From a virus (taxonomy: Duplodnaviria; Heunggongvirae; Uroviricota; Caudoviricetes), in IMG/VR virus record IMGVR_UViG_3300005323_000036: DNA of 64,000 bases. One strand, written 5' to 3'. Positions 8,669 through 41,886 of this stretch are shown here, piece by piece. Under the pieces are notes generated by a model that saw only the letters and a program-made list of their open reading frames with translations, did not search any database and had not been told where the DNA came from. Numbering within the stretch: position 1 is the first letter of the stretch; each line of letters opens with the position of its first letter. The position numbers and the translations under genes are program-made.

Positions 8669-10984
8669 ATGGATTCTGAAATATGGATAATGGAGAATGC
8701 GGGGTATATTGTCGATTATAAAACTAATAAGCCTATTATAATGCTTTTTTCCAGGAACTATAAAGATAAGTATAAAACAATTACTCACAAAGTTTATGGG
8801 TTTGAACCATATTTTTATTGTCCTGCAAATGAAACCGATAAAGAAGATCCTGATAGATATAAACTTCCTCCTAAATGCAGATATGATGATGAAATTGTTA
8901 TAGATGCGCTAGGAAGAGAAGTTAGAAAGGTAATTGTTGATATACCCAATAGAGTTAGGGATATACGAGATAACTATTCATTTACTGATATGAGTGATTT
9001 CTTATTTGAAAAGAGATTTCTTGTAGACTATAAAATAAAATATGCATATACATGGGATGAATTTAATAATAGACCAACTCCCGTAGAAGTAGAAGGAATT
9101 CTTGAACCGCGTATAGTATATTATGATATTGAAAACTTATCTAAAGATGGTGGTTTTCCTGGTGCAGAAGAAGCAAAATATCCAGTTTGTATGATCCAAG
9201 TAAAAGATAGTTATACTAAAAAACATTTCTTGTTTACATCAGGAGTTCCACAAACTAAATTTGAAGGTCATATTGCTTGTAAAAATGAAAGCGAATTGTT
9301 TAAAGTTTTCTTGGAATATATAAAAGATATAAATCCCGATGTAATCAGCGGTTGGTGGAGTTCGGGCTACGACCTTCCTTATTTAATCAAAAGGGCTTAT
9401 AATCTTGGTTTAAATTTTAATGGATTTGGTAGGATAAATCGACCATTTAGAAACTTTGACATTAAAAAGAATGAGTGGAGATCTAAAGCACCCGGAAGAT
9501 CTACACTTGATATGAAAGAAGCATTCAAGAAGAAAACTGCTGTTGATGCTCAAAGAGAAACATATGCACTTAAATCTATATCTGCATTGTATGGATTTGA
9601 ATATAAAGATTTTGGACCTACCATCAATAAATTATTTGAAGATGAAGATTGGGAAACGCTACTTCAATATGGTTTAAATGATGTTCTTGCACTTGAATTG
9701 ATTGATGAAAAAGCAGGATTATTTAGTTTCTTTGAAGGGTTGCGGAAATTTACAGGTTGCTTTCTTGACGATGTGTTGCATACGTCTCTTCCAATAGAAT
9801 CGATTCTTCTACATAAAAATATTAAACCAATGCCAAGGAAATCTATATTCGTAGAAAGTGATAAATCTAAATTTGAAGGTGCGATAGTTCACAAACCTCC
9901 GGCAGGAATTCATCATAACGTTATTACGATAGATATTGCCGCATTATACCCCAATGTGCTCTATGGCTACTCTTTATCTCCCGATGTGGATGGGTTGGTT
10001 CCTAATACATTGAGAGAAATTATGGATGAGCGAGAGAGATTAAGAGCATTAAAAAAACTAAATCCAAGCGATATAAACATTTTTTATGAAGAAACAGCCA
10101 TAAAAATTGTGGCGAATGCCTTTTTTGGTACGATAGGATCGAAATCTTTTAGATTATTTAATGAAGAAATTGCGGGAACTATTACACGTAAAGGTAGAGA
10201 AATAAATCTAATGCTCAAAGAATATGCCGAGAAATTGAATTTAAACGTCATAGCGGGGGATACGGACAGCTTATTTCTTACAGAAGTTAAAACAATAGAT
10301 GAAGGTCTAGAATATGAAAAATTATTTAATGACTTTTTAGAAAAGTTTTCAATTGAGACAAAAAGTAAAGTTATATTTAAACTTAAATTTGAAAAATTCT
10401 TTAGAACCCTTATGTTTAAATTTAAAAAGGATGGTGAACCTGCAAAAAAGAAATATATTGGTAATTTAATTTGGGAAGAAGGAAAAGATTGTAATGAATT
10501 GTATGATAAAGGTACTGAATTAACTAGATCTGATAATTCCAAAATAACAAAAGAAATATTAGAAACGTTTATGGATCTACTATTAATGAAGGATGATTCT
10601 GAAAATGCTAAAAAATATATTAAAGAATCATATGATAGAGTTAAAAATGGAAATGTAGATGTATTTGAAATTTCTATACCGAAGGAAGTTAGGAAAGCAA
10701 ATGCAAGTGGTCCTTGGCAAGAAGGTAAAGATAATACTATAAAATATTTAAATCACCATATAACCGAGGGAGAAAAACCGAGATTAATATATGTAACTAA
10801 AGAACCTTATAAACTTTGTATTGATGAGGATTTAGATATTGGAGAATGGAAAAATTACATTGACTGGAAACTTACACTTGAAAAAACTGTTACTGATAAA
10901 CTTAAAACATACGTAGAAGCAGCGGGTATGGACTGGGACGCAATTGTTCACGGCCAAAAAAGTCTCACCGATTTCTTCAGTTAA
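8669..10984 (+). CDS. polB: family B DNA polymerase with 3'-5' exonuclease domain
   Basis: Exo I is YYDIENLS. Pol motif A is DIAALYPNVLYGY and motif C is IAGDTDSLFL. Length is 771 aa. Confidence 0.9.
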   Translation: MDSEIWIMENAGYIVDYKTNKPIIMLFSRNYKDKYKTITHKVYGFEPYFYCPANETDKEDPDRYKLPPKCRYDDEIVIDALGREVRKVIVDIPNRVRDIRDNYSFTDMSDFLFEKRFLVDYKIKYAYTWDEFNNRPTPVEVEGILEPRIVYYDIENLSKDGGFPGAEEAKYPVCMIQVKDSYTKKHFLFTSGVPQTKFEGHIACKNESELFKVFLEYIKDINPDVISGWWSSGYDLPYLIKRAYNLGLNFNGFGRINRPFRNFDIKKNEWRSKAPGRSTLDMKEAFKKKTAVDAQRETYALKSISALYGFEYKDFGPTINKLFEDEDWETLLQYGLNDVLALELIDEKAGLFSFFEGLRKFTGCFLDDVLHTSLPIESILLHKNIKPMPRKSIFVESDKSKFEGAIVHKPPAGIHHNVITIDIAALYPNVLYGYSLSPDVDGLVPNTLREIMDERERLRALKKLNPSDINIFYEETAIKIVANAFFGTIGSKSFRLFNEEIAGTITRKGREINLMLKEYAEKLNLNVIAGDTDSLFLTEVKTIDEGLEYEKLFNDFLEKFSIETKSKVIFKLKFEKFFRTLMFKFKKDGEPAKKKYIGNLIWEEGKDCNELYDKGTELTRSDNSKITKEILETFMDLLLMKDDSENAKKYIKESYDRVKNGNVDVFEISIPKEVRKANASGPWQEGKDNTIKYLNHHITEGEKPRLIYVTKEPYKLCIDEDLDIGEWKNYIDWKLTLEKTVTDKLKTYVEAAGMDWDAIVHGQKSLTDFFS

Positions 10985-11217
10985 TGTATCTAATAATAGA
11001 TCTATTATCTTCTCCTTTCTTCCGAAACTATTATCATCTTTTAGAACTAATACTATGTATGGAAGAAGAATGTAGAATAATCTCAAAGAAACGGTTTGAT
11101 GAACTTATTGAAGCAGAAGCAATGTTAGAGGCACTTTATGCTGCAGGTGTTGATAATTGGTCTGGGTATGATGAAGCGATGAACATTTTAGACGAATCAT
11201 CTAATGTAGAAGAATAA
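10984..11217 (+). CDS. hypothetical protein (start uncertain: 10984 or ATG 11059)
   Basis: Overlaps the polB stop in an ATGA-like arrangement. The C-terminal motif is AAGVDNWSGYDEAM. Confidence 0.3.
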   Translation: MYLIIDLLSSPFFRNYYHLLELILCMEEECRIISKKRFDELIEAEAMLEALYAAGVDNWSGYDEAMNILDESSNVEE

Positions 11218-11237
11218 AACTATTATTATTGATTATT

Positions 11238-11387
11238 ATGGAAGAATCAACAGAACTTGAATACCTGAAATGGTTTCATCAAATGGCAGATTTTGGTCCA
11301 TCTGATGGAGATGTAAGAATTCACTTACAAGAAATGTTTGAAAGAGAAACTGGAAAAAGAGTTCCTTCAAACTGGAAATATGAATAA
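11238..11387 (+). CDS. hypothetical small protein
   Basis: 49-aa ORF MEESTELEYLKWFHQMADFGPSDGDVRIHLQEMFERE…. Confidence 0.3.
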   Translation: MEESTELEYLKWFHQMADFGPSDGDVRIHLQEMFERETGKRVPSNWKYE

Positions 11388-11745: not shown

Positions 11746-11767
11746 ATTTTTTAATTACTAGTATATC

Positions 11768-12511
11768 ATGAAAAATCAAGCACGTATTAAGTATCTCTAT
11801 TTCAGGGATATTGTAAACATTGTAAAGGCATGTAACATTGAAGCGCGATTGCATATTGAAGAAGATAGAATCTGGCTTAAATGCGTAGATATATCAAATG
11901 TGATGATGGTTAATCTTAATATTCCTAAATCAGTATTTGAATCTTACAGCCTTAAACCACAAGTTATTGGCATTGATTTTGCTAAACTATCTACATTCTC
12001 CAACATGACATATGGTTATGTAGATATTATCCAGGGTTTCAAAGATCTAGATGATACATTTGATATTAAATTTGAATCCGGTAAATATAATCTAACAATC
12101 AAAAATGGATTAGATATCACGACAATTAAGAAAGAACCCAATGACTTTAATGAAGAAATTCTCGATACATCTGCAATTGTTAGTTCACCATCAGTTAGAA
12201 AATTCCTCAAAGAAGTCAAGAAAGAATCAAGTAGAGTAAAAATAAGTATTGTGTCTGGAGATCTCTATTTCAATGCATATGATGAATCCGAATACATTTA
12301 TGAATTTGTTACCAGAGATGCTGTATCATCATTAGACTCCAATGCAAAAACATCACTATATTCAATTGAATATATAATCGATTGCTTCAAATATGTTAAA
12401 GGTGATGTTGAAATTTTAATGGGAACTGACAAACCATGTAAAATTTCATTCGGATTAGATGGAATAAACATTGGATCATATGTATTGGCGCCCAGAATTG
12501 AAGGAGATTAA
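11768..12511 (+). CDS. PCNA-type sliding clamp
   Basis: 247 aa. The N-terminal pattern fits PCNA domain 1. The C-terminus GSYVLAPRIEGD matches the PCNA tail YYLAPKIEDEE. Confidence 0.75.
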   Translation: MKNQARIKYLYFRDIVNIVKACNIEARLHIEEDRIWLKCVDISNVMMVNLNIPKSVFESYSLKPQVIGIDFAKLSTFSNMTYGYVDIIQGFKDLDDTFDIKFESGKYNLTIKNGLDITTIKKEPNDFNEEILDTSAIVSSPSVRKFLKEVKKESSRVKISIVSGDLYFNAYDESEYIYEFVTRDAVSSLDSNAKTSLYSIEYIIDCFKYVKGDVEILMGTDKPCKISFGLDGINIGSYVLAPRIEGD

Positions 12512-16302: not shown

Positions 16303-17316
16303 ATGTATAAAATAGGTTTGATGATTACTTATAATGAATCTCACTTTATTAAATACTCACTTCCTAATTTATTGAGATGTGTAGATTATGTTTTAGTATT
16401 AGATGGATCTAATAAAGGAGAAGGAACGCGTGAATATTTAGAAAGTTTAGATAATGTAATTGTATTCTATGAAGAGTTTTGTCCCGAAATAAAAACATAT
16501 AAAGATCGTAGACAGTTTCTTTTAGATAGGGGAAGACCAAAAGCATCTCATTTTATTGTTATTGATGCTGATGAAATTTTAAGTGAAGAATTAATCAATT
16601 ATCTAAACAACAATGATTGGAATGATGCTATTTATTGTAAATGGTGGCATGTTGGTAATAAATTAAATTTAGTAAATAAAGATAGGCTAAAAGATACACA
16701 AGGAATTGCATTTATAGATAAGGGAATTAATTATCATGGTAATGAATATGTTCATGAAGATAAAATTCCAATTGGAAGAGAAGAAAACTATGTAATAGTA
16801 AATTATCCATTATTTCATTTTGGGATGTGTAATACAGATTACATAAATATTAAAGAATCTTATTATAAATGTTTATCAATAAAAGAAGGCTATCCAACTT
16901 ATAGAATAAATTTAGACTATCTTAATAACTATTCTAATGTAATTTATACAGAAATACAAAAATATCACTATCCAGATAATATTAATGAAGATATTCTTAA
17001 TATTGATAAATCAATGAAGAACAAATTGTTTGAATTAGTTAAGAAAAATTATATGAGATATTATGATCTTGATATATGGTCAGATGAATTGATAAATTAT
17101 TGCAAGAAAGAATGTGTATTGTTTAAAGAAAATTTAATTTACATTAGACAAAATGAAAGTCATAAAATAAAATATTTTAAAATTATGTATCAAGGGTTTA
17201 AATACAATCTTGAAAAAGGTAATTATATGAACATTTTAAAAGGAATGTTAGAAATATATAACTATTTAAAATCTCATGCTAGATACAGAATTAGTAAATT
17301 TTGGAGTAATTCATGA
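16303..17316 (+). CDS. glycosyltransferase (GT2-like fold)
   Basis: N-terminus MITYNESHFIKYSL…VLDGSNKGEGT…IVIDADE. First gene of the glycan cluster. Confidence 0.55.
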   Translation: MYKIGLMITYNESHFIKYSLPNLLRCVDYVLVLDGSNKGEGTREYLESLDNVIVFYEEFCPEIKTYKDRRQFLLDRGRPKASHFIVIDADEILSEELINYLNNNDWNDAIYCKWWHVGNKLNLVNKDRLKDTQGIAFIDKGINYHGNEYVHEDKIPIGREENYVIVNYPLFHFGMCNTDYINIKESYYKCLSIKEGYPTYRINLDYLNNYSNVIYTEIQKYHYPDNINEDILNIDKSMKNKLFELVKKNYMRYYDLDIWSDELINYCKKECVLFKENLIYIRQNESHKIKYFKIMYQGFKYNLEKGNYMNILKGMLEIYNYLKSHARYRISKFWSNS

Positions 17317-18419
17317 TTAGAGTTGCAATCATCAGAGAAAATGGTTTATTTTATGGTGGAACTGAAAAGTTTCTTCAGATTATGGCCGCTGAAACAAACA
17401 AAGATGAATTTCAAATTGATTATTATACGACAGATAAAATGAGATCTCCAGATAGAAAAAAATATCTATTGGATAATAATGTTAATATAATTAAATTCAA
17501 AGTAAAGCCTAGATATGAGAGGATACCTTTTAGAATTTTAAATCTACTTAATAATAATTGGTCTGATTTTTGGCATAAATTTAATAAAGTTAATAATAAA
17601 ACTCCATATGATGTAATTCAAATTACTAATTTTGGATGGAAAGAAGAGCCATTTCAAAGTTTTAAAGATGATTATAAAGTATGTGAATTTACAGTATTTC
17701 CACCATATGTTAAATTTCCAGGAGTAAAACATCACATTTTAAATTCTGAATGGTTAAGGGATCAATGGTTGTTTAGATTTGCCGAAGGACATAGTGGAAG
17801 GCGTAGCAAAACTACAGTAATACCAGTTCCAGTAAAGAAGACATCAGATAAAAACTTAAGAAAAGAACTTGGAATTTCAGAAGATACCATTGTATTTGGT
17901 TTCCATCAAAGAAATGATAATGGATTGTTTTCTCCTGTTCAATTAGATGCGTTTTCTAAACTAGAGAAAGAATGTGATGATGTAATGATGTTTGTATTAA
18001 ATGGGTGTGATTTATACAAAAAACAAGCAGAAAATCTAAATATAAAAAACATTAAATTTATTCCGTATCAAGATGAGGTTTCTCCATTTCTCAATACATT
18101 AGATGTTTATGCACATGGTAGAAAAGATGGTGAAACTTATGGTATGGTATTAGCAGAAGCAATGTTACATGGTTTACCTTGCATAAGTCACACTACGCCG
18201 TATTATAATGCAATGAATAGTGTTATAGGAAGTGGTGGGTTTGTTGTAAATTCAGGACATGAATATTTTCAGGTGATGGAAGATATGTTAATTGATTCTT
18301 ATAGAAATGCAACATCTAAAAATGCATTGCGAATTGCTAATGAAAATTATACATATGATGTAGTTATTCCAAAAATAGAAGAAGTATGGAGAAAAGTTGC
18401 TAGAAAGGACGTGCTATAA
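17313..18419 (+). CDS. glycosyltransferase family 1/GT4-type
   Basis: C-terminal GT4 signature ETYGMVLAEAMLHGLPCISHTTP. It overlaps its neighbours in ATGA/TAATG fashion. Confidence 0.65.
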   Translation: MIRVAIIRENGLFYGGTEKFLQIMAAETNKDEFQIDYYTTDKMRSPDRKKYLLDNNVNIIKFKVKPRYERIPFRILNLLNNNWSDFWHKFNKVNNKTPYDVIQITNFGWKEEPFQSFKDDYKVCEFTVFPPYVKFPGVKHHILNSEWLRDQWLFRFAEGHSGRRSKTTVIPVPVKKTSDKNLRKELGISEDTIVFGFHQRNDNGLFSPVQLDAFSKLEKECDDVMMFVLNGCDLYKKQAENLNIKNIKFIPYQDEVSPFLNTLDVYAHGRKDGETYGMVLAEAMLHGLPCISHTTPYYNAMNSVIGSGGFVVNSGHEYFQVMEDMLIDSYRNATSKNALRIANENYTYDVVIPKIEEVWRKVARKDVL

Positions 18420-19405
18420 TGGAAGAAGATCTGGTATGTTGTGTTATATCGTCTTGGAATCGCCTTGATATATTAAGACAGAATATTGATGCAATTTATA
18501 AACAAGATTATCAAAACAAAGAGATTATTGTTATTGATAATTGTAGTAATGATGGAACACAAGAATATTTAAAAGATAAATATGAAAATCAGTGTAAATG
18601 GGATTTCTTCTATGAGATAATGCCACATTCGAAATTTACTGCAATGCAAACTCTTAATCGTGGATTTTGGATTGCTAAATATGATCATCATGCTAAATAT
18701 ATTCTCGTGTTGGACGACGATTGTATATTACAAGAAACTAATAGTATCTCTAAACTTGTCGAAGTTGCTAAAAGTAAAAAAGATGTTGGAATGGTCGCAT
18801 GTAATGTAAGAGGTCCTGAAAATAAAATCCCACAAACAGATTTCAAATTTGCATTAAATACACATATTAATTTGAAATCATTACCAAGAAATCCATTTAG
18901 AGTGTATGATTATATTGGAGCATGTGCTTTATATAATACTGATATTTTTAGTGGCTATGATGAATCATTTGGAATTTATTGGAATGAATCAGATACAGCA
19001 TTAAATATTCTTTCAAGAGGGCATGATGTTCTATTTGAGAAGAATGTGCAACCTATACACTTGTATTCTCCAAAACAACGTAATGTAAATAAAGGTGTGT
19101 ATTATTATATTAAAAATGGTAATACTATAATAAATAGATATTTATCATTTAAAAACAGATTAGTATTGATACCCTTAAGACTTGCTACAATGATGATTTG
19201 GGTATGGAGATTTAAAGATATCAAACTTGTAATTAAAGCAATTCTTATAAGTATTCTCGGATTGATTCAGATATTCTATATGAAAGATCGAGTTAAACCA
19301 ATTAATGATACTATTCAAAATGAAATAAACCAAGCATATACTGGATGGTATTTTAGGAAATTTTATGAATGGATATTTGGTTATTCAATTTATGAAGGAT
19401 TATAG
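18419..19405 (+). CDS. GT2 glycosyltransferase with two C-terminal TM helices (GtrB/Dpm-like lipid-linked sugar transferase topology)
   Basis: VISSWNRLDILRQNIDAIYKQDY…IIVIDNCSNDGT and VLDDDC (DxD). The C-terminal helices are LVLIPLRLATMMIWVW and LVIKAILISILGLIQIFY. Confidence 0.65.
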   Translation: MEEDLVCCVISSWNRLDILRQNIDAIYKQDYQNKEIIVIDNCSNDGTQEYLKDKYENQCKWDFFYEIMPHSKFTAMQTLNRGFWIAKYDHHAKYILVLDDDCILQETNSISKLVEVAKSKKDVGMVACNVRGPENKIPQTDFKFALNTHINLKSLPRNPFRVYDYIGACALYNTDIFSGYDESFGIYWNESDTALNILSRGHDVLFEKNVQPIHLYSPKQRNVNKGVYYYIKNGNTIINRYLSFKNRLVLIPLRLATMMIWVWRFKDIKLVIKAILISILGLIQIFYMKDRVKPINDTIQNEINQAYTGWYFRKFYEWIFGYSIYEGL

Positions 19406-19422
19406 AAAGAGGATTTTTATTT

Positions 19423-20148
19423 ATGACTGATATACTGCAAATTGAACCAACTAGAAACTGTAATAAGAACTGTAAAACGTGCTCAAGAGATTCGTCTTAC
19501 TCTGGTGATATTTCTATTGAAACATTTTTTAAAATTTTAGATTATCATAAAAGTGATCATTTTGATATTCTTAAAATTCAAGGATTAGGTGAGCCATTTA
19601 TGCATCCAGATATTGTGAAATTATCTGAAATTGGTAGAACCTATGGATTTAAGAATATCATGACCATTACAAATGGTTCATTTCCAATTGTTGGAGAATT
19701 TGATAATGTTATGTTTTCTATCAATAAATTAAATGAATCTGATTATCATGATCAAAGAACAATTAATCACATATTAGATACAAAAAAGAATGGATACAAT
19801 GTAAGAATTAATTGTGTATTATCAGATCAAACAAAAGATGATATAAATAAAGTTACAGGATTTGCTGATAAATATTCTATACCAATTGATATAATTCCTA
19901 TGGAAGTTTGGTATGGATGTGAATATAAAAATTATGATGAATTGCATAATCAAGCAAAGAATGTATATAATAGATTCAACATAAAAATAAAGAATAGAAT
20001 TGATACATGTGAATGGTATATAAATTCACTCTATTATGATTATCTTGGAAGATTACATCCATGTTGTATCAGAATGACCGATGAATATATTATTACAGAT
20101 GATGAGAAATTTGACTTCAATTCATGCTGTAAAAACTGTCCCGTATGA
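19423..20148 (+). CDS. radical SAM enzyme with C-terminal Cys-rich (SPASM/twitch-like) region
   Basis: CNKNCKTC (Cx3Cx2C), GLGEPFMHPD, and C-terminal C…CC…CC..C. Confidence 0.65.
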   Translation: MTDILQIEPTRNCNKNCKTCSRDSSYSGDISIETFFKILDYHKSDHFDILKIQGLGEPFMHPDIVKLSEIGRTYGFKNIMTITNGSFPIVGEFDNVMFSINKLNESDYHDQRTINHILDTKKNGYNVRINCVLSDQTKDDINKVTGFADKYSIPIDIIPMEVWYGCEYKNYDELHNQAKNVYNRFNIKIKNRIDTCEWYINSLYYDYLGRLHPCCIRMTDEYIITDDEKFDFNSCCKNCPV

Positions 20149-20167
20149 AGAGGAAAATAGTGATATT

Positions 20168-20734
20168 ATGAAATTAGATAATGGCGTTGTTGGTTGCTTA
20201 AGTCCGATTGAAGGAATTGCATTGGAAACATTAAGTAGAAAATGTAGTCCTGAAAATGCAATAGTTAATATTGGATGTTTTAGAGGAAAGAGTCTTACAT
20301 ATATTACAACCGGAGTAAAGTCTAGATTTGTTCAATCTTCTAAAAAACAAGTTTATGGAATTGATATAAGAATAAAAGATATACTTAATGATATAGAATC
20401 TATAAAACATAATACTACTCTATTACAAGGTTCTTCGTATGATCCTGTAATATATAATCAAATAAAAGAACCCGTTGAATTTGTATTTATTGATGGTGAT
20501 CATTCTATAGAAGGTTGTTTAAAAGATCTTGAAATATATTGGAACAAACTTATTTCTGGTGGAGTTATGATGGTTCATGATAAATTTGGAACTAATGGAA
20601 ACATTCACGAACCTGGAGTAAAAGAAGCATGTGAAATTTTTGAGAAAAAACATTTCAATGAATTTGTTCCTGATGATTGGAATGAATCTCCAGTCCATAG
20701 AGTAGATTCAAGTTGGATAGTTCAGAAGAGATGA
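20168..20734 (+). CDS. class I SAM-dependent methyltransferase (Methyltransf_24/TylF-like)
   Basis: FVFIDGDHSIEGCLKDLEIYWNKLISGGVMMVHD. ATG at 20168 was chosen because the longer track form overlaps the radical SAM gene. Confidence 0.55.
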   Translation: MKLDNGVVGCLSPIEGIALETLSRKCSPENAIVNIGCFRGKSLTYITTGVKSRFVQSSKKQVYGIDIRIKDILNDIESIKHNTTLLQGSSYDPVIYNQIKEPVEFVFIDGDHSIEGCLKDLEIYWNKLISGGVMMVHDKFGTNGNIHEPGVKEACEIFEKKHFNEFVPDDWNESPVHRVDSSWIVQKR

Positions 20735-26118: not shown

Positions 26119-26123
26119 TACAT

Positions 26124-26318: not shown

Positions 26319-26328
26319 ACTATAGATT

Positions 26329-27039: not shown

Positions 27040-27098
27040 ATAAAATTATTAAAATTCGAATAGTATTTTAACTGTTAAACTAATTAATATGAGATCAT

Positions 27099-27341
27099 AT
27101 GTGCATGGTTATTGAAACATTGGAAACTGAAGATAAATTTGTAAAGATTAAAGATATTATATGTATATATGATGAAGATAATTACATTTATTGTAAAACA
27201 GAGTTTAAATATTATAAACTATATAAATCAAAAAATATAGATTATGATATGAAACAGAAACTAATGCGAATTATATATGCGCGTAATCTAAACAGAGACA
27301 CGTATACTCAAGAAATGCTAATCAAAGATATGAAAAAATAA
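27099..27341 (+). CDS. hypothetical protein
   Basis: 80-aa ORF. Confidence 0.35.
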   Translation: MCMVIETLETEDKFVKIKDIICIYDEDNYIYCKTEFKYYKLYKSKNIDYDMKQKLMRIIYARNLNRDTYTQEMLIKDMKK

Positions 27342-27393
27342 GAGAGACTAGTGAGAATATTTTAGAATCTAATTAAAACAAGGTAATATTATT

Positions 27394-27528
27394 ATGACAT
27401 GTTATAATTGTAGATATTTTATCATTAAAGGAAATAATCATTATGAATGCGCGTGGAAAGTTGCAACTATCATAAACCCATGGGAAATTTGTGATGAAGA
27501 AGATAGTATTGTATTAAATGAAGAATGA
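27394..27528 (+). CDS. small Cys-containing peptide
   Basis: 44 aa, MTCYNCRYF…HYECAW…. Confidence 0.25.
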   Translation: MTCYNCRYFIIKGNNHYECAWKVATIINPWEICDEEDSIVLNEE

Positions 27529-27546
27529 GTTGGAATTATTTTTATT

Positions 27547-28461: not shown

Positions 28462-28470
28462 AACCGTTAC

Positions 28471-28577
28471 CTTTATATACAGATAGATCATAAAATTTAG
28501 TACCGGCTTTACACACCCATTAACTTTATGGGAATAACAGGGAAAGTTTTTCTTCTTTCTTTTTCTTTGTTATGAGT
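28471..28577 (-). repeat. intergenic element copy D (reverse orientation) of the 5-member repeat family
   Basis: CTTTATATACAGATAGATCATAAAATTTAGTACCG followed by the polypyrimidine tract TTCTTCTTTCTTTTTCTTTGTTATGA. It lies between the ligase and the ribonucleotide reductase. Confidence 0.6.
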
Positions 28578-28666
28578 TTTTCGGAATTATACTTGTTTCA
28601 TGCGCGCTATATTTGTTTTTAATTTATGATATATTTAAATATGTAAAAAATAAACATATATGTTCT

Positions 28667-30871
28667 ATGCAATCAGATCCTATTGTTGAATCTATTTTAA
28701 AAAAGCGTTATTATCAACCTGGAGAAAGTTCATGGGAAGATATTGCAACCAGAGTATCAAAATTTTTAGCGACAACTGATAAGAATTTTGTAGAATATTT
28801 TCATGCAATTAACGATCTGGAAATTATCCCCAATTCTCCATGTCTTATGAATGCTGGAACTAATAATCCACAATTAAGTGCATGTTTTTCAATTAATATA
28901 GATGACTCAATAGATTCTATTTTTGATGGAGTAAAGGCATGCGCTCTAATTCATAAATCAGGTGGAGGAACTGGAATTAATTTTTCTAAAGTCCGCGGAA
29001 AGGGATCAAATGTTAAAGGAACTGGTCATATGGCATCCGGACCTGTATCTTTCATGTATGCATTTAATCAGGCAACCGAAACGATTAAGCAGGGTGGAAA
29101 ACGTAGGGGTGCAAATCTAGGCTCTCTTGATATTGCTCATTCTGATATTAAAGAATTTATTACATGTAAATCAGAAGAAGGTGTATTATCAAATTTCAAC
29201 ATAAGTGTTAACATTACTGATACCTTTATGAATCATATTAAAAATGAAGAGTTTGATAAAATATGGATAAAATCTACAAATTCTGAAATTCCTGATACTA
29301 CTGTAGGAGAGATATGGAATTTAATTGTGAAAGGTAATTGGAAAAATGGAGAGCCGGGGATTATATTCTCCGATACTGCAGAAAGGGATAACAAACGCCC
29401 AGATTTAGGAAAACTCGAACATACAAACCCATGCGCAGAAACTAGGCTTTTTGCATGGGAATCGTGCAACCTTGCATCAATAAATCTAATGAAATGCTAT
29501 GATACTGATGGTGAATCGTTTAATTGGGACAAATTTCGCTCACTTGTAAAACTCGGCGTTAGATTCCTTAACGATATGATTGATAAAAACAAGTATCCAC
29601 TCCCACAGATTGAAGATGCAACGAAGCGCACACGGAAGATTGGGCTAGGCGTTATGGGATTTGCAGATCTTTTAATTGCACTAAATATGACCTATGGATG
29701 TCAAGGCTCACTTGATTTTGCAGATATGCTATTCAAAGAAATGCGGGATATTGCAGAACAAGAATCTGAAATTATTGGTGGTAAGTTATATAATGCAGCA
29801 TTACTATCAATTGCCCCTACAGGAAGCATAAGTCTATTTGCTGGAGTATCTAGTGGAATAGAGCCCAACTTTGGGTATGTTTATAATAGATCAACGTGGG
29901 TAGATGGTGAAAAGAAGACATATAATATGTTACATCCTATGTTTGAGGAAATAGAAAACATGCTCCGGGAGAATATACTAATAGATACATCAATCGAAGA
30001 TTATGTATTGGAACATGGAACTATAAAGGGAAGTCCATACGAATATGCTTTTGATAATTTCGTCACCGCTAAAGATATCTCTCCAATGGATCACGTTCGG
30101 ATGCAGGCAGTTATTCAGAAACATGTCGATCAAGCAATTAGCAAAACAATAAATTGTCCTGAATCAACGACAGAAACAGAAATTGGAGAACTTATTAAAT
30201 GTGCATGGGAACTTGGTTGTAAAGGATTAACAATTTATAGAGAAGGATCACGAGATGATGTAGTTTTAGAAACAAACTCTAGTAAACCCGAAAACTTTGA
30301 TAAAGAAACAAAAGAAATAAGTAATCCAGTAAAATATAAACTTGTTACTGCAAATGGCAGGATTGTTCCAAAAACTCCGCGCACAATGAATGCTACTGTA
30401 AACAAGCGCAAAACGGGATGTGGAAAACTTTATGTTATTCCTGCAGAAGCATTTGGAGATTTACACTCACTATTCCTAATAAATAAAGGTGGGTGTGATG
30501 CTATGACCCAAACTGTTGCTGAATTAATTGGTTCAATGCGCAGATTTGGTATACCAAGGTGGGAAATTACTAGAATTTGCAGTGGAATTTTATGTCCAGC
30601 GTGTAGAGGCAAAAAAGATGTTGATGGTAAATCTTGTGCTGATATTATTGCAAAGGTAATTCTTGAACTTTATCCAGATGAGATAGAACCAGCAAAAGAA
30701 GATATTATTGAAAATAAAAAAGATGATGTTAAAGTTGAACCTTCTTCTGATGGATTTAAAGGAACCCCGTGTCCTGAATGTTGGGACCCCGTAACTAAAA
30801 CTGGTGGGAGACTTGAATTCATCGAAGGCTGTCGGACTTGCAAATCATGCGGCTACAGTAAATGCTCGTGA
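28667..30871 (+). CDS. nrdJ: class II (adenosylcobalamin-dependent, monomeric NrdJ-type) ribonucleotide reductase
   Basis: TNPCAETRLFAWESCNLASINL active-site region, and a C-terminal Cys-rich tail (CPACRGK…CPECWDP…CRTCKSCGYSKC). The first ATG is 28667; the track start at 28613 is TTG. Confidence 0.85.
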   Translation: MQSDPIVESILKKRYYQPGESSWEDIATRVSKFLATTDKNFVEYFHAINDLEIIPNSPCLMNAGTNNPQLSACFSINIDDSIDSIFDGVKACALIHKSGGGTGINFSKVRGKGSNVKGTGHMASGPVSFMYAFNQATETIKQGGKRRGANLGSLDIAHSDIKEFITCKSEEGVLSNFNISVNITDTFMNHIKNEEFDKIWIKSTNSEIPDTTVGEIWNLIVKGNWKNGEPGIIFSDTAERDNKRPDLGKLEHTNPCAETRLFAWESCNLASINLMKCYDTDGESFNWDKFRSLVKLGVRFLNDMIDKNKYPLPQIEDATKRTRKIGLGVMGFADLLIALNMTYGCQGSLDFADMLFKEMRDIAEQESEIIGGKLYNAALLSIAPTGSISLFAGVSSGIEPNFGYVYNRSTWVDGEKKTYNMLHPMFEEIENMLRENILIDTSIEDYVLEHGTIKGSPYEYAFDNFVTAKDISPMDHVRMQAVIQKHVDQAISKTINCPESTTETEIGELIKCAWELGCKGLTIYREGSRDDVVLETNSSKPENFDKETKEISNPVKYKLVTANGRIVPKTPRTMNATVNKRKTGCGKLYVIPAEAFGDLHSLFLINKGGCDAMTQTVAELIGSMRRFGIPRWEITRICSGILCPACRGKKDVDGKSCADIIAKVILELYPDEIEPAKEDIIENKKDDVKVEPSSDGFKGTPCPECWDPVTKTGGRLEFIEGCRTCKSCGYSKCS

Positions 30872-30948: not shown

Positions 30949-31323
30949 ATGATTTCTGATGAGTTTAAAAGTGAAGGACATTGGGGTTTATCATCTGCAA
31001 TAACTGTTCACAATTGTGATTCTGATAAGATAAGAAACGGTTCATTTATTAAACAATTTCTATTTGATCTGATAGATTACATTGATATGAAAAGACACGG
31101 TGAGCCTGTCATAGAAAGATTCGGCAGTGGCAGTTTAGTTGGCTACAGTGTAATGCAACTTATAGAAACATCGTCAATAACAATGCACTTTAGCGAGGTT
31201 GATAATCGCGCATTTATTGACATATTCTCATGTAAAGGATATGAACCTGATGAAACCGCTGAATATTGCGAAGACTATCTATCAGGCACTAATGTAACAG
31301 TCTCATGGCAATTTAGAGACTAA
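30949..31323 (+). CDS. S-adenosylmethionine decarboxylase-like (SpeH/class 1 pyruvoyl-enzyme fold) protein
   Basis: LIETSSITMHFSEVDNRAFIDIFSCKGYEPDE matches the AdoMetDC region LAESHISIHTWPE…DVFTCG. The self-cleavage Glu-Ser motif is altered to E-T-S-S. Confidence 0.45.
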   Translation: MISDEFKSEGHWGLSSAITVHNCDSDKIRNGSFIKQFLFDLIDYIDMKRHGEPVIERFGSGSLVGYSVMQLIETSSITMHFSEVDNRAFIDIFSCKGYEPDETAEYCEDYLSGTNVTVSWQFRD

Positions 31324-31357
31324 TATCAAACAATAATCTATTTTTACAGGATCTAGA

Positions 31358-31461
31358 AGAATTACTAAAACCTCATAACAAAAAGGAAAAAGAAAGATCC
31401 TCTTTGCTAGGTCTACACTAAATTATATGATCTTAAAGTATATAAATGTTATTGTTGATTA
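31358..31461 (+). repeat. intergenic element copy B; 104 bp identical to 48683..48786
   Basis: Base-by-base comparison gives a perfect 104-nt match. It contains the polypurine tract AAAAAGGAAAAAGAAAGATCC and the core CACTAAATTATATGATCTTAAAGTATATAAATG. Confidence 0.85.
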
Positions 31462-31559
31462 GTGGATCTTTAAATTTATTTTTTTCTCTTTTATTCTTCC
31501 AATATCTTTATCATCTTATAAGTTTAATATGTAATTGGTCGTAAGACTAGGTATAGACT

Positions 31560-32447
31560 ATGTTATTGTTCTTTATTATAGGACTAGTATTAGGAATTAT
31601 TGGACTAATGGGACTACTAAAGAAGCCATCTTCAGATTATGATGATAGTTTCATTGGTAAAATAATCAGTGGCATATTATTAATTGTAGGATTATTTTTA
31701 ATTGTTAGTTCGTGTGTTATTGTTATTAATCCAGGAGAAGTTGGAGTGGCAGTTACTCTTGGTAATTTAGATAATAATGTTAAATATTCTGGAATTAATT
31801 TTGTATTACCGATTACAGATATTGTTATTTTTAACGCAAAAACTCAAGTAGATACACAACAGGCGAATGTTCTAACATCAGATGCACTTACTATTGCTAC
31901 TGATGCATCGATTAACTATAGAATAGATCCAGCATCAATTATATCCATTTACAAAACAATGGGAACTGAATATAAAGAAACTGTAGTCGATCCTACGATT
32001 CGTTCTGTAATCAGAGATGCATTTGCTACTTATGATACTAAAACACTCTATAGTTCAGGCAGAACTAACTTGAGTGAAGAAATTGAAAAACGTCTTTCTG
32101 TAGATCTTAAACCACGCGGAATTATAATTGAAGATGTTCTACTTCGTTCAGCAGAACCACCGGCATCTGTAAAAACTGCAATTGAACAGAAACAGCAGAT
32201 GGAACAGGAGATCCAGAAGAAGCAGTTTGAAGTTCAAAAGGAACAGGCTGAAGCAAATCGTAAAATTGCAGAGGCTAATGGTATTGCAGAAGCAAATCGT
32301 ATCATCAGTAATTCTATTACACCTGCATATATTGAATGGTATACTGTTGATATGCTTAAGAATCACCACAGTGATGCTATGATGTATATTCCAACTGGTT
32401 CAAATGGTCTTCCAATGGTAACATCATTACCATCTAACAAATCATAA
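31560..32447 (+). CDS. SPFH/band-7 (stomatin/prohibitin/HflKC-like) membrane protein
   Basis: N-terminal TM, then VINPGEVGVAVTLGN… SPFH core, then a coiled coil EQKQQMEQEIQKKQFEVQKEQAEANRKIAEANGIAEANRII. Confidence 0.75.
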   Translation: MLLFFIIGLVLGIIGLMGLLKKPSSDYDDSFIGKIISGILLIVGLFLIVSSCVIVINPGEVGVAVTLGNLDNNVKYSGINFVLPITDIVIFNAKTQVDTQQANVLTSDALTIATDASINYRIDPASIISIYKTMGTEYKETVVDPTIRSVIRDAFATYDTKTLYSSGRTNLSEEIEKRLSVDLKPRGIIIEDVLLRSAEPPASVKTAIEQKQQMEQEIQKKQFEVQKEQAEANRKIAEANGIAEANRIISNSITPAYIEWYTVDMLKNHHSDAMMYIPTGSNGLPMVTSLPSNKS

Positions 32448-33382: not shown

Positions 33383-33757
33383 ATGTATCCCACTACTAAT
33401 CATCAATTTATTGCGATTAAAGCAGCACTTGATATGAAACTTTCTAGGTTTAAACATGGTGCTATAATTTATGATAAAAATGGAAAGGTCTTGTCTGTAG
33501 GTAGAAATATTCCACATTATAGACCTGGATTAAAAAAGTATGGATATAAGAATCTATTACTTCATGCTGAATCAGATGCTATATTAAAATGTAATCCTGA
33601 AGATCTTAAAGGCTCAAATCTATTGGTGATTAGAACGGGTAAGAATAAACTTTGTAATAGTAAACCATGTGAACACTGTCTATCCATGATATTACAATGC
33701 GGTATTAAACACGTTTACTATAGCAATGTAGATGGTAAGATAGAAAGATTATTTTAA
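33383..33757 (+). CDS. cytidine/deoxycytidylate deaminase-fold zinc deaminase (substrate uncertain)
   Basis: HAESDA (HxE zinc ligand) and PCEHC (PCxxC), with an N-terminal GAIIYDKNGKVLSVGRN typical of the CDA fold. Confidence 0.6.
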   Translation: MYPTTNHQFIAIKAALDMKLSRFKHGAIIYDKNGKVLSVGRNIPHYRPGLKKYGYKNLLLHAESDAILKCNPEDLKGSNLLVIRTGKNKLCNSKPCEHCLSMILQCGIKHVYYSNVDGKIERLF

Positions 33758-37936: not shown

Positions 37937-38455
37937 ATGAATAGATTATATTTATATGGTATAGAACAAGCAAAACTTACTGCTAGTTTTTCTACTTGTT
38001 TATCTACTCATTATGGTGCTGTGATTATAGATCCTGATACAGGGTTTATTACTACTGGAAGGAATGGTTCTCCTAGAGGTATGGAACATTGCACTGATAG
38101 AGGATGGTGTATTAAAAGAGAACTTGGATATGATCATTTTCAACAAGATATGAAAGAATGGATAGGTATGGATAGTTATTGTACGTGTTCACACGCAGAA
38201 CAAAATGCACTCATACAAGCAGGAACTCGTGCTAAAGATTGTATCATGTTTTTATACGGTGAGCGCAATGATGCTCCAATTATACCGTCTCCATGTTTTA
38301 CATGTATAAAATTAATTATAAATGCTGGTATTAAATCAATTATAATTAGACCAAATATTGAGTATATTGAAATTGATCCTATTAAATTGTATAAACATTA
38401 CGAAACCGTTTTAATGAATAAAGTTATTGAATATAAAAACGAAAAGGAAGCATAA
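37937..38455 (+). CDS. dCMP deaminase
   Basis: CSHAEQNALIQAG (HAExNA) and SPCFTCIKLIINAGI (PCxxC), the classic dCMP deaminase signature. Confidence 0.7.
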   Translation: MNRLYLYGIEQAKLTASFSTCLSTHYGAVIIDPDTGFITTGRNGSPRGMEHCTDRGWCIKRELGYDHFQQDMKEWIGMDSYCTCSHAEQNALIQAGTRAKDCIMFLYGERNDAPIIPSPCFTCIKLIINAGIKSIIIRPNIEYIEIDPIKLYKHYETVLMNKVIEYKNEKEA

Positions 38456-38677: not shown

Positions 38678-38735
38678 TTTATTTAAAAGTAAATCATTTT
38701 ATTTAAATACTGTTTAATTTTTATAATCTTGTCAG

Positions 38736-39676: not shown

Positions 39677-40321
39677 TTGACACTTGAAATAGCAATAGAT
39701 GTAAGAGAACCACAGTGGCTGCGAACATGGCTGCCAAAACAATTTAAAGATATAAAATTTGAATTTAAAACATTGATTGAGGGTGATTTTTCAAGTGATC
39801 ATGTTCTTATAGAAAGAAAATCTATTGATGATTTATGGTCTTCACTACACGATGGTAGATTTAGATCACAGGTATCTAGATTGACAACTCATCAATGTGA
39901 CAAGATTGTTATGTTTCTTGTTGTGGGATCTATTGATGAATTCATTTATAAGATGCGTAAACTGCATTTTAAAGTAAGTGAAGATATGTTACATGGTGCA
40001 ATAGCATCTTTAATTGTTCGTGACAATATAAGGGTTCTGTGTTGCTCTAATGAGAAGCACGGACTAAAAGAAATGGTAAGGGTAATTCAAAAAATCGAGG
40101 AGGAAGATATATTAAATTATCCGGCAGCCAGAGATGAAAACATGCTATTTGCGCGATTATTAAACATTCCAAAAAATACATGGTTTGATATTAAAGAAAC
40201 CTATGGAACTTCATTAAAATATCTATCCTCGTTAGATAAGAAAGATTTCATGAAAGTTAAAGGAATTGGAAAAGTAAAAGCAGAAAGTATAGTAAACATT
40301 CTCCATAATGGATGGGAATAG
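39677..40321 (+). CDS. XPF/Mus81/Hef-type (ERCC4) structure-specific nuclease with C-terminal helix-hairpin-helix
   Basis: IAIDVREP…GDFSSDHVLIERKSIDDLWSS is the ERCC4 GDx(n)ERKxxxD signature. C-terminal VKGIGKVKAESIVNIL is the HhH. The only start that keeps the IDVRE motif is TTG at 39677. Confidence 0.65.
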   Translation: MTLEIAIDVREPQWLRTWLPKQFKDIKFEFKTLIEGDFSSDHVLIERKSIDDLWSSLHDGRFRSQVSRLTTHQCDKIVMFLVVGSIDEFIYKMRKLHFKVSEDMLHGAIASLIVRDNIRVLCCSNEKHGLKEMVRVIQKIEEEDILNYPAARDENMLFARLLNIPKNTWFDIKETYGTSLKYLSSLDKKDFMKVKGIGKVKAESIVNILHNGWE

Positions 40322-40413
40322 ATTTAAATAGTTTTAAGTTTAATATAGTATTCTAATTTCCTTTGGCGAGTGAATTAGAAATCTTACTCTTTTATTTTCT
40401 TTTCTAACACAAT

Positions 40414-40524
40414 CTTTATATACAGATAGATCATAAAATTTAGTACCGACTCTCAACAAAGAGGAAGACTTCTTTTTCTTTTCTTTCTTTCTTTTTGTTA
40501 TGATGGTGGCTCACGGCGTTCGCA
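40414..40524 (-). repeat. intergenic element copy E (reverse orientation) of the 5-member repeat family
   Basis: TCTTTATATACAGATAGATCATAAAATTTAGTACCG + polypyrimidine tract + GTTATGATGGTGGCTCACGGCGTTCGC. It lies about 200 nt upstream of the AAA+ ATPase gene. Confidence 0.6.
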
Positions 40525-40719
40525 AAGAACAGTTATTTTCTTGATACATTATATTATTGTTGTATTACTTATTTTATATTAGTGTTACTGTGGGATATAT
40601 TTAAATATTGACAATGCAAATTATAATATCCAAAATATGAAATTTGAGTTTTGTTATTCAATTAATATGTTTAAATTGTTACTTTGATTTGTTGGTTTTG
40701 TTATATATTCTTCGTAGGT

Positions 40720-41886
40720 ATGAGGGAGGTGAATAAATTAATATATGACTACGTTATCAACGAATTAAGGTCCAGAAATGTTCAGGATGCAGATATTTAT
40801 GGTCCGTTTTATATCATAAGTTATGCTTGTCATGCATTTAATATTCATAATAAGGAGGCCGCTTCATTTACACATGGCGGACTTATCAAAAGTATGCGTG
40901 TTCCTGTGATTGCAATGGGACCTCCAGGTTGTGGTAAAACTTATTTTTTGGAGCAGATGAGTGATCAGGTAAGTGGTATTTTTCAACGACTTCAATACAA
41001 TATGAAGTTTGAACAAAAGATGACTGATGCCGGTTTAGTTGGAACAGTTGCCAGTAATCCAGAAGATCCCGAAAATCCAATTATAAAACACGGGGTTGCC
41101 GAAACTCATAAAAACTCTATTATATTGATTGATGAGTTTAGTGACTTAATGCGGGCTATGACATCACAGTATGGTGTTAATCAGGAAACGCTGTTGGCGG
41201 CATTAGATAGTGGTAGAGTTGTAAATGCAATGGCTAATGGTGAATATGAATATGAGACTAACTTTACACTGTGGTGTGGTATTCAACCAGTTAAGTGTGA
41301 TATGTCTGGTGGATTAGGTAGGCGTCTATGTATTATTTTAAATATTCCAACTAAAGATTCACAGCGCAGATATAGAAAAGCATCTAGATATAGTGATAAT
41401 GTAAGAATTGATAGGGAACATTTGACCGATTTAAATACGCGCATGAAACTTTGGCTATCTACAATTAGCCTCATTAAAACTGTTAGATTTTCTGAAGCAT
41501 TTTATGATTTTCTAGAATACGATCTCGATGCGGATAATTATATTATAGAATTGTATAAAAAGATGGCAATTGGTTATTATATTGCTAAATGGGGCGGTAG
41601 TGAACATATGATTGTTGATGTAGATACTAATATTAAGAATATATTAATAATGGAACACAAGTGGAGAAAACGTGTAATGCAAGGTCCTGAAATCCAACAG
41701 ATCATATCATTGATTGAAGAAAATGGAATAAAAACAGAATCTTCAATTAGTATACAGAGAATTACACTCAATACTGTTGGATCTGATATGGGTCTATCTG
41801 CATCACAAATTCATAAAATTTTATTAGATATGAAAAATTATGGATATGTGAATATTAAAAATAATGTAGTTACTTTAGCAATGTGA
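40720..41886 (+). CDS. AAA+ ATPase (Orc1/Cdc6- or helicase/clamp-loader-like replication ATPase)
   Basis: Walker A is MGPPGCGKTY and Walker B is SIILIDEFSD. It has a sensor-like NFTLWCGIQP and a C-terminal putative winged helix. ATG is at 40720 (the track start at 40684 is TTG). Confidence 0.5.
   Translation: MREVNKLIYDYVINELRSRNVQDADIYGPFYIISYACHAFNIHNKEAASFTHGGLIKSMRVPVIAMGPPGCGKTYFLEQMSDQVSGIFQRLQYNMKFEQKMTDAGLVGTVASNPEDPENPIIKHGVAETHKNSIILIDEFSDLMRAMTSQYGVNQETLLAALDSGRVVNAMANGEYEYETNFTLWCGIQPVKCDMSGGLGRRLCIILNIPTKDSQRRYRKASRYSDNVRIDREHLTDLNTRMKLWLSTISLIKTVRFSEAFYDFLEYDLDADNYIIELYKKMAIGYYIAKWGGSEHMIVDVDTNIKNILIMEHKWRKRVMQGPEIQQIISLIEENGIKTESSISIQRITLNTVGSDMGLSASQIHKILLDMKNYGYVNIKNNVVTLAM

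Follow-up and report, generated by a model that had tools for sequence, protein, structure and literature searches.

A pair of deeply diverged PCNA-type clamps and an XPF-type nuclease gene in an uncultured tailed virus of probable archaeal host

Introduction

Large tailed viruses of archaea that encode a family B DNA polymerase (PolB), PCNA, the clamp loader RFC, MCM, primase and DNA ligase are well described (PMC10768690; 10.1101/2025.02.15.638363), and nucleases of the ERCC4/XPF kind are known both in Asgard viruses (10.1101/2021.07.29.454249) and in the tailed viruses of nanohaloarchaea and haloarchaea (10.1101/2025.02.15.638363). Where archaeal genomes contain extra copies of PCNA, these typically stem from viruses or plasmids, and the crenarchaeal paralogues form heterotrimers (PMC3914693). 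Here we describe a stretch of 64,000 nucleotides (hereafter the window) from the IMG/VR virus record IMGVR_UViG_3300005323_000036, assigned to the Caudoviricetes, which encodes two PCNA paralogues (PCNA1 and PCNA2) together with a PolB, an ATP-dependent ligase, a short XPF-type nuclease and an AAA+ ATPase. A pair of PCNA genes is also present in chloroviruses. Among the deposited phage records that match PCNA1, none proved to be a prokaryotic virus with two different PCNAs.

Since PolB, PCNA, ligase and even nucleases resembling XPF have been documented before in archaeal viruses, the headline observation will not surprise a specialist. What is new is the viral lineage, the divergent family represented by PCNA2 and the conserved arrangement of two clamps; no new category of system is at issue. 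As the best overall explanation, we consider it probable that the virus represents a clade of archaeal tailed viruses not described before, with an AT-rich, uncultured host.

Results

Two genuine PCNA paralogues

The initial annotation of the window, made from its letters, had recognised a pair of PCNA-like clamps and recorded their C-terminal tails. The two genes are as follows.

11768-12511, + strand: PCNA1, the clamp subunit adjoining PolB (Pfam PCNA_N 2e-6, above cutoff)
26329-27039, + strand: PCNA2, a highly divergent PCNA-fold clamp subunit (family profile, AlphaFold model, Foldseek)

PCNA1 is a two-domain protein of ~245 amino acids (aa) with PCNA homology along its full length. When compared with the PDB by phmmer it matches the PCNAs of Haloferax and A. 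fulgidus at 1.6e-16 over the full length (residues 11-247 in the Haloferax alignment), and the profile of its family (alignment A4) matches PDB entry 1rwz at 2e-37; a match to the NCBIfam sliding clamp reaches 1.7e-34, yet scores below the curated cutoffs. It ends in LAPRIEGD, and P223 and A241-E245 are invariant in its family. Pfam, phmmer and profile comparison all place it with PCNA, as first annotated.

PCNA2 has no Pfam match even at E<=10, and against NCBIfam NF002222 it scores 38 bits where the cutoff is 207, so that curated family thresholds are not passed. A word-based search of 5.8 billion proteins returned just one homologue, 96% identical, and a scan of JGI metagenomes gave one 1.2-kb contig. 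Exhaustive HMMER comparison with 1.84 billion protein representatives recovered 21 members of the family, each of ~235 aa; among the 20 that were aligned, 15 end in ..APRI/L/F, with P213 and P231 invariant, and the window copy has the tail TPRIEKE. The profile of this family matches A. fulgidus PCNA (1rwz) at 3e-29 across the whole length. An AlphaFold model built from the family alignment has a pLDDT of 92.8 and a pTM of 0.89, and Foldseek superposes it on A. fulgidus PCNA with a TM score of 0.82 (E 2e-14), the top 50 PDB matches being PCNA without exception. The protein is thus predicted to be a PCNA-fold clamp and not a member of an unrelated fold: by profile and by modelled structure, the only means that recognise it, PCNA2 qualifies as a true PCNA, though one of extreme divergence.

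Comparison of the two families with hhalign (99.8% probability, E 2e-28, 16% identity) argues that the clamps are true paralogues, deeply diverged, and upholds their original designation. Both are acidic (pI ~5.1), both retain an ..APRIE-type tail and the D-x-P pocket proline, and on the predicted inner helices of PCNA2 there are lysines. The surface that binds the PCNA-interacting protein (PIP) box, formed by the C-terminal ..APK/RIE tail and the pocket proline, therefore appears from these residues to be kept in both clamps.

Clients of the clamps

The initial annotation had named the polymerase, the ligase and the nuclease as proteins in which PIP boxes might be sought.

8669-10984, + strand: family B DNA polymerase, PolB (Pfam DNA_pol_B 6e-32, exonuclease domain 4e-17)
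27547-28461, + strand: minimal ATP-dependent DNA ligase of the T7/LigE type, 304 aa (DNA_ligase_A_M 4e-15; DNA_ligase_OB_2 1e-14)
39677-40321, + strand: short XPF/Hef-type ERCC4 nuclease with a probable C-terminal tandem helix-hairpin-helix, (HhH)2, domain (Pfam ERCC4 2e-16)

The identity of PolB is secured by these Pfam matches and by its exonuclease and polymerase motifs (ExoI DIE, motif A ..LYP, motif C DTDS). It carries the C-terminal PIP box QKSLTDFF at residues 763-770 of 771, one residue before the end, and so combines the exonuclease motifs, polymerase motifs and terminal PIP box of a clamp-dependent family B polymerase. The glutamine, Q763, is invariant in 17 PolBs of the clade, where the consensus is GQxxLxxWF. 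A scan of all 110 open reading frames (ORFs) of the window with the pattern Qxx[LIMV]xx[FYWH][FYWLH] gave two matches against 2.65 expected by chance, and only that in PolB is terminal. It is the terminal position of a canonical box, with its glutamine invariant across the clade, that makes PolB the one well-supported clamp client. The enzyme is only 23-25% identical to that of any deposited virus. Many polymerases of the clade are split by inteins or homing-endonuclease insertions (PF14890, PF14528; homologues P0023, P0034, P0036-P0038, P0040 and P0042, and loci L041, L043, L048, L050, L053 and L055), and that of the window is intein-free.

The ligase has the motif KLDGIR (KxDGxR) at residues 27-32, nucleotidyltransferase and OB domains above the Pfam cutoff, and PRK09125 (6.5e-25) as its best NCBIfam match; it shows neither the N-terminal DNA-binding domain of Lig1 nor a PIP box. 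An ATP-dependent enzyme is present as annotated, and its minimal T7/LigE architecture with an OB_2 domain is not the archaeal or eukaryotic style that had been supposed. Its sequence does not mark it as an evident client of either clamp.

The XPF gene begins with TTG, a start also chosen by the gene caller, and its product aligns over the full length with A. pernix XPF (2bgw/2bhn) and with the nuclease of P. furiosus Hef; the best NCBIfam match is the nuclease region of euryarchaeal Hef. The catalytic signature GDXnERKX3D is intact as GDx10ERKSIDD (G36-D37 ... E46-R47-K48-S-I-D-D52), an acidic motif lies upstream of it, and D8, R10, E11, G36, D37, E46, R47, K48 and D52 are invariant in six viral XPF homologues, including that of Methanobacterium virus PhiF1. 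These features sustain the assignment to ERCC4/XPF. Within the helix-hairpin-helix region the Pfam families HHH and HHH_5 score below cutoff (18 bits), the alignment to A. pernix XPF extends through its HhH2 as far as residue 210 of the 214, and the GIG hairpin shows no variation. The protein stops four residues past the putative HhH2, at a C-terminal end reading …ESIVNILHNGWE.

Cellular crenarchaeal XPF is said to have been found by Roberts et al., in 2003, to bind PCNA through a C-terminal motif, and by analogy the viral nuclease had been proposed as a clamp client. No canonical PIP box (Qxx[LIMV]xx[FYW][FYW]) occurs anywhere in it, and because such a box is found only in PolB the proposal is left unsupported. 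A terminal [IV]L-x3-[WF], conserved in four of five XPFs of the clade, may be taken as a lead only.

Distribution of the clamps among related viruses

The clade is defined by PolB homologues that are 31-65% identical, on contigs of ~50-155 kb. Its replication block has a syntenic order, in which AAA_24, PD-(D/E)XK and PolB are followed by ThyA, PCNA2 and a ribonucleotide reductase (RNR), and then by XPF and the AAA+ gene. In the window the members of this block not yet located are these.

1118-1945, + strand: AAA_24 / Sak4-like RecA-fold ATPase of the recombination module (Pfam AAA_24 3e-7; PHROG Sak4-like, weak), syntenic with PD-(D/E)XK and PolB in relatives
2268-3173, + strand: PD-(D/E)XK (Cas4/RecB-like) exonuclease (Pfam PDDEXK_1 3e-7; PHROG exonuclease), conserved adjoining AAA_24 and PolB
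22062-22784, + strand: thymidylate synthase (ThyA), closest to the methanogen-type family (Pfam Thymidylat_synt 3e-16)
28613-30871, + strand: class II (B12-dependent) RNR (Pfam 1.6e-111; NCBIfam NrdJ_Z 7e-163, above cutoff)

Every fetched locus (numbered with L) was scanned with hidden Markov models (HMMs) of both clamp families. Besides the window, both types occur in one locus in L038, a 135-kb contig, and in L039, a 64-kb contig. The PCNA1 type adjoins PolB in L008, L018/L039, L038 and L041. Within 10 kb of PolB only the PCNA2 type is seen in L014, L050, L052, L053 and L057, and in L014 PCNA1 is not at the syntenic position. The PCNA2 type lies 0-1.1 kb downstream of ThyA in six relatives, and RNR comes after it in L013, in L039 and in the window, there past the ligase. 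From this distribution PCNA2 appears to be the clade-wide clamp and PCNA1, the more canonical-looking of the two, an addition in a subset, so that the intuitive reading is reversed. Since several relatives show PCNA2 alone near PolB, it apparently works without PCNA1.

Two further candidates for paired clamps were discarded. A 234-aa ORF beside PCNA1 in L018 is not a PCNA according to the clamp-family HMMs. In the Halorubrum tailed virus OP630575.1 (L015, 66,249 bp) PCNA and other single-copy genes appear twice because a large internal segment of the record is duplicated, its ORFs bearing the labels A and B, and these copies are not paralogues.

How the two clamps might act together can be weighed against this distribution. 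One alternative would place PCNA1 and PCNA2 in a single heteromeric ring, resembling the crenarchaeal PCNA1-2-3 assembly, in which each subunit docks its own client (PolB, ligase or XPF). That paralogues so diverged are retained side by side in no fewer than three genomes (window, L038, L039), very unequal in size, agrees with a shared ring, as does the precedent of crenarchaeal heterotrimers with subunit-specific partners (PMC3914693); the five relatives with PCNA2 alone within 10 kb of PolB, the want of a syntenic PCNA1 in L014, and the finding of just one canonical PIP client, PolB, make it unlikely in our estimation.

A second alternative takes PCNA2 to be no working clamp but a decoy of PCNA fold, poisoning or redirecting host PCNA or sequestering host PIP-box proteins. 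Its extreme divergence (no Pfam match, 16% identity to the PCNA1 family, 21 clusters in 1.84 billion proteins) and the position of its gene among those of nucleotide metabolism, away from the polymerase, could be read in that way. We judge a decoy to be very unlikely nonetheless, given that the full two-domain fold is retained in a high-confidence model, that the APRIE tail, the pocket proline and the lysines on predicted inner helices are kept, and that, in several relatives that retain the PolB PIP box, no clamp other than PCNA2 is seen near PolB. We thus favor two working clamps, PCNA2 general to the clade and PCNA1 additional; to be set against this is that ring formation, stoichiometry, loading and client specificity are inferred for both.

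A conserved gene partner of XPF

The XPF gene is followed in the window by that of an AAA+ protein, and the two are adjacent in five viruses (the window, L037, L040, L049 and L050).

40720-41886, + strand: AAA+ ATPase with probable C-terminal winged helix and MCM-like core, a putative mini-MCM (profile of the five-member family alignment, A5)

Taken as a single sequence, this protein gives generic AAA matches only (Pfam, NCBIfam), and its AlphaFold model is unusable (pLDDT 33.7). In the alignment of its five-member family the Walker A motif is deviant, reading xPxGxxK[ST], and the Walker B motif IDEF does not vary. In comparison with the PDB, MCM proteins account for the top eight matches of the family profile and for 11 of 14 at E<=10, with weak E-values of 0.0055-0.3; their alignments take in the AAA+ core (E 0.0055-0.04) and, in separate matches, the winged-helix domain at the C-terminus of S. 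solfataricus MCM. One of the five family members matches Pfam MCM at 0.009. The N-terminal OB-fold/zinc domain of MCM is absent, ~55 residues preceding the P-loop. On this weak but coherent evidence the protein resembles an MCM truncated at its N-terminus, a "mini-MCM", and against that label the weakness of the E-values and of the single-sequence model must be counted.

It had been annotated as an Orc1/Cdc6-like ATPase at 40684-41886, and we considered whether the 388-400-aa protein might be an origin-binding initiator of that type. The architecture of Orc1/Cdc6 likewise consists of an AAA+ core with a winged-helix-like region C-terminal to it, and some archaeal tailed viruses encode such proteins (10.1101/2025.02.15.638363). 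No ORC/Cdc6 family or structure was matched at E-values up to 10, however, and the MCM-like deviant Walker A, the invariant IDEF Walker B and top PDB matches to MCM only, including its winged-helix domain, speak against an initiator, to which we attach little likelihood. The Orc1/Cdc6 label is accordingly unsupported. Taking the protein as MCM-like, its conserved adjacency to XPF suggests a functional pair of motor and nuclease, reminiscent of euryarchaeal Hef.

Promoters, homologues and the domain of the host

The host is most likely archaeal, a conclusion in which we have strong confidence, and is probably an uncultured AT-rich archaeon of an anoxic or methanogenic habitat. Intergenic regions of the window show a pyrimidine-rich tract and then TTTATATA, TTTAAATA or TTTTTATA. 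Octamers within one mismatch of TTTATATA start 28-39 nt upstream of ATG in 23 cases against ~4.4 expected (Poisson P ~4e-10), and the same positional peak of a TTTAWATA box is found in related viruses. Such boxes stand 24-39 nt upstream of the start codons of 19 window genes; the sequence (C)TGT(A/T)AA often comes after them, and the pyrimidine-rich tract ahead of them is likely the terminator of the upstream unit.

669, 1082, 8298, 14248, 21696 and 36037, and on the - strand 56093 and 60303: example TTTAWATA boxes among the 19 sites

In archaea a TATA element is typically placed ~30 nt before the start codon, the first genes of units being leaderless or short-leadered and the internal genes led by a Shine-Dalgarno (SD) sequence. 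Box position by itself was dropped as archaeal evidence and does not discriminate, because the late promoter of bacteriophage T4, TATAAATA, used as a control, peaks similarly; we relied instead on the motif itself and on the absence of SD sequences, scored by SD-like 4-mers in the interval -20..-4.

Window genes with a box: SD-like 4-mer in 1/19
Window genes without a box: 38/87 (P=0.0012 against genes with a box)
T4 late-promoter genes, control: 15/16 (P=8e-8 against window genes with a box)

Sigma-70 promoters and hairpin terminators occur in the window at chance frequency, with no excess.

Homologues of the replication proteins point in the same direction. Among 50,697 records of phages and archaeal viruses, PCNA1 matches five (four Halorubrum viruses and one Methanomicrobiales virus) and XPF one (Methanobacterium virus PhiF1). 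All six are archaeal viruses, which bears out the earlier remark that PCNA together with XPF is atypical of bacteriophages. ThyA matches the NCBIfam methanogen family TIGR03283 (thy_syn_methano) at 4.8e-45, its 153.5 bits falling just under the cutoff of 174.6. The archaeal host first proposed is thereby upheld on three grounds, namely TTTAWATA boxes without SD sequences, homologues of PCNA and XPF in archaeal viruses only, and a ThyA of methanogen type. The further idea of a uniformly archaeal-style toolkit fares less well: the archaeal-type genes are there, in a mosaic with genes of phage type.

Several observations weigh against an archaeal host. The T4 control shows that a bacterial phage promoter can take the same position. 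The ligase, the PolB lineage, the AAA_24 ATPase and the PD-(D/E)XK nuclease are of phage type and not archaeal. Adjoining PolB is a gene whose family is annotated as an inhibitor of RecBCD, a bacterial target; to our knowledge archaea lack RecBCD.

10984-11217, + strand: small acidic protein of the T7 gp5.9 (RecBCD-inhibitor) family (Pfam PF25708 1.5e-14, above cutoff; PHROG 6234 2.8e-13), with no tblastn match among the 50,697 phage records

Relatives, finally, are binned in metagenome-assembled genomes (MAGs) labelled Dehalococcoidales, Patescibacteria, Saccharibacteria, Syntrophaceae and Paceibacterota, and also Methanospirillum.

These points could be accommodated by a bacterial host, for example of an AT-rich candidate-phyla-radiation or anaerobic lineage, infected by a phage that has captured PCNA, XPF and other archaeal-type genes. 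To the bacterial MAG labels, the gp5.9 homologue, the T7/LigE-type ligase and the promoter spacing of the T4 control may be added a PolB that is about equally similar to gp43 of T4-like cyanophages and to halovirus PolB. We regard such a host as highly improbable. The MAG labels are inconsistent and include Methanospirillum, as is typical of mis-binned viral contigs; SD sequences precede 1/19 promoter-proximal genes here and 15/16 in T4; the box matches the archaeal TTTAWATA consensus exactly, in a window that lacks enrichment of sigma-70 promoters and intrinsic terminators; no bacterial phage of the 50,697-record collection has a homologue of PCNA or XPF; and a methanogen-type ThyA and an MCM-like ATPase are present.

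The MAG labels merit separate comment. Contigs of the clade (L008-L011 and those of the PolB homologues P0029, P0065 and P0066) are filed in MAGs named Saccharibacteria, Syntrophaceae, Methanospirillum, Paceibacterota, Patescibacteria and Dehalococcoidales, two distinct viral contigs (155 kb and 136 kb) standing under the last of these names with accessions that look consecutive. Since the labels contradict one another, they most likely reflect mis-binned viral contigs, and the placement is likely bin contamination in public genomes. Four MAG contigs from the scan of the PolB clade were for this inconsistency rejected as evidence of host. Taken together the labels point to a habitat that is anoxic or methanogenic. 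Bacterial as well as archaeal MAGs in public databases are thus likely contaminated by contigs of the clade.

Genome context and neighboring genes

Exact protein matches place the window on two contigs, ENA ERZ27247097 k141_474768 (127,274 bp) and JGI 3300029959 Ga0272380_10000336 (127,234 bp), in the second of which it occupies positions 47,103-111,102. As these independent assemblies are near-equal in size and differ in their start points, they indicate a complete genome of ~127 kb, circularly permuted or terminally redundant. The window has a G+C content of ~29-30%; a tRNA scan found no tRNA genes in it, and hence no tRNA-based clue to the host. Genes run on the + strand to ~42.4 kb and on the - strand beyond, and the window consists of a replication and nucleotide-metabolism arm (+ strand, 1-42.4 kb) and a tail module (- strand).

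44657-64000, - strand: tail module, with LamG fibre protein, PKD/DUF2341 proteins, large unannotated proteins and tape-measure protein (Pfam; PHROG tail assembly weak)
60398 past the window end to ~65926, - strand: tape-measure-like protein, 1842 aa (2141-7669 of L004, the same genome)
42594-43385, - strand: calcineurin-like (Mre11-type fold) phosphoesterase (Pfam Metallophos 1.3e-4, weak)

Beyond the end of the window, in L004, a Phage_tube_2 tail-tube protein precedes the tape-measure protein. The tailed-virus backbone that had been claimed is supported, since tail-tube, tape-measure and fibre-type proteins (PKD, LamG, DUF2341) are present; no capsid, portal or terminase gene was seen within the window, and these are placed outside it. 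The tape-measure-like protein has an N-terminal match to the HD domain (PF01966), unusual for a tape measure.

The + strand arm includes the following additional genes.

16303-20734, + strand: glycosylation/modification cluster of three glycosyltransferases, a radical-SAM protein and a CmcI-type methyltransferase
23506-23973, + strand: HNH endonuclease between ThyA and PCNA2 (Pfam HNH 1.6e-5)
30949-32447, + strand: auxiliary genes for S-adenosylmethionine decarboxylase and an SPFH/band-7 protein
33383-33757, + strand: dCMP/cytidine deaminase, paralogue 1 (Pfam dCMP_cyt_deam_1 2.7e-11)
37937-38455, + strand: dCMP/cytidine deaminase, paralogue 2 (Pfam dCMP_cyt_deam_1 1.8e-13)

Glycosyltransferases and sugar epimerases hold the position of the first of these clusters in relatives L013 and L014; an HNH endonuclease with 39% identity (tblastn) is at the equivalent position in L014, and the SPFH/band-7 protein is 65% identical in the 64-kb related virus L018/L039.

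Discussion

The organization of these genes can be reconciled with a scheme of replication in which PolB would be tethered through its PIP box to a ring of viral PCNA, and the ring loaded by the clamp loader of the host. Host RFC is proposed in this role because no viral RFC was seen within the 64 kb examined, nor was a primase or a full-length MCM; as a counterpoint, a viral RFC, a primase or further clamp clients may lie elsewhere in the ~127-kb genome, in its other ~63 kb. The PCNA2 type would represent the ancestral, clade-wide clamp, embedded in a block of ThyA, PCNA2, (ligase) and RNR, and the PCNA1 type beside PolB an extra clamp in a subset, most likely forming a separate ring that differs in the specificity of its clients or of its timing; a mixed ring is less likely because relatives appear to have PCNA2 alone. 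Recombination-dependent replication, driven by the Sak4-like ATPase and the PD-(D/E)XK exonuclease, may generate the substrates of XPF; this structure-specific nuclease, working as a homodimer, would remove 3' flaps and resolve branched intermediates before packaging, possibly jointly with the adjacent mini-MCM motor. ThyA, RNR, the two dCMP deaminases and MazG-like genes would feed the supply of dNTPs, and promoter-proximal genes would be transcribed from TATA promoters of the TBP/TFB type as leaderless or short-leader mRNAs.

A more ambitious proposal, which we offer tentatively and hold to be rather doubtful as a whole, is that of an integrated dual-clamp system in archaeal tailed viruses of 55-155 kb, with the virus-specific PCNA2 as its core, PCNA1 recruited beside PolB, and clients partitioned between two clamps or gathered on a mixed ring, in which XPF and mini-MCM act as a split, Hef-like motor-nuclease on stalled or branched forks. 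If the proposal is true, no multi-PCNA system would have been known before from a prokaryotic virus. The PCNA2 family may be viewed as a natural experiment in the limits of sliding-clamp divergence with the PIP-binding tail kept, and the conserved pair of XPF and mini-MCM genes hints at a modular motor-nuclease. Because both clamps co-occur stably in genomes of 64 to 135 kb, specialization and heteromerization could be told apart by direct tests on the two small proteins and a single PIP peptide.

Among described viruses the closest in general plan are the magroviruses/Aoguangviridae, Druskaviridae, Hafunaviridae and the haloarchaeal DHTV-1/-2 (110 kb), which have in common with the present virus a Caudoviricetes-type tail module, the disposition of replication and structural genes in two opposed blocks, PolB, PCNA, an ATP-dependent ligase, class II RNR, thymidylate synthase and large AT-rich genomes (PMC10768690; PMC8651126; 10.1101/2025.02.15.638363). 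The present virus differs from them in having two PCNA families and not one, a minimal T7/LigE ligase, and a PolB no more than 25% identical to those of deposited viruses, as well as in the lack of RFC, primase and full-length MCM from the window; its genome, at ~127 kb, exceeds the 90-110 kb quoted for those groups. PhiF1, which infects a Methanothermobacter host, shares the ERCC4 nuclease (25% identical), a PD-(D/E)XK nuclease, a methanogen-type ThyA and an RNR in one block, and is unlike it in its DnaE-type polymerase, its want of a PCNA match and an RNR of the anaerobic class. According to its record annotation (L033, MK994522.1; locus 25648-30442) the ERCC4 and methanogen-type ThyA genes stand beside a bacterial-type DnaE, and from this pairing it follows that replication modules of archaeal viruses can be mosaics of different domains.

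The Asgard viruses Fenrir and Nidhogg, likened here by description, have XPF-like ERCC4 nucleases with HhH domains in addition to PolB, RFC-like and ligase genes, and the related Skoll has PCNA (10.1101/2021.07.29.454249); the reports on them describe neither two PCNA paralogues nor a pairing of XPF and mini-MCM genes. With the short, PCNA-dependent XPFs of Crenarchaeota (S. solfataricus, A. pernix) the viral nuclease shares its length, the GDXnERKX3D motif and a probable architecture of nuclease and (HhH)2 domains, differing in that it ends four residues past HhH2 and has no canonical PIP box. As to the clamps themselves, the nearest parallels are the crenarchaeal PCNA1-2-3 heterotrimer and the PCNA1 and PCNA2 of T. 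kodakarensis, the second of which derives from the integrated element TKV3. Unlike those systems, both copies here are viral, differ from each other much more strongly (16% identity), and are kept together in a clade of prokaryotic tailed viruses.

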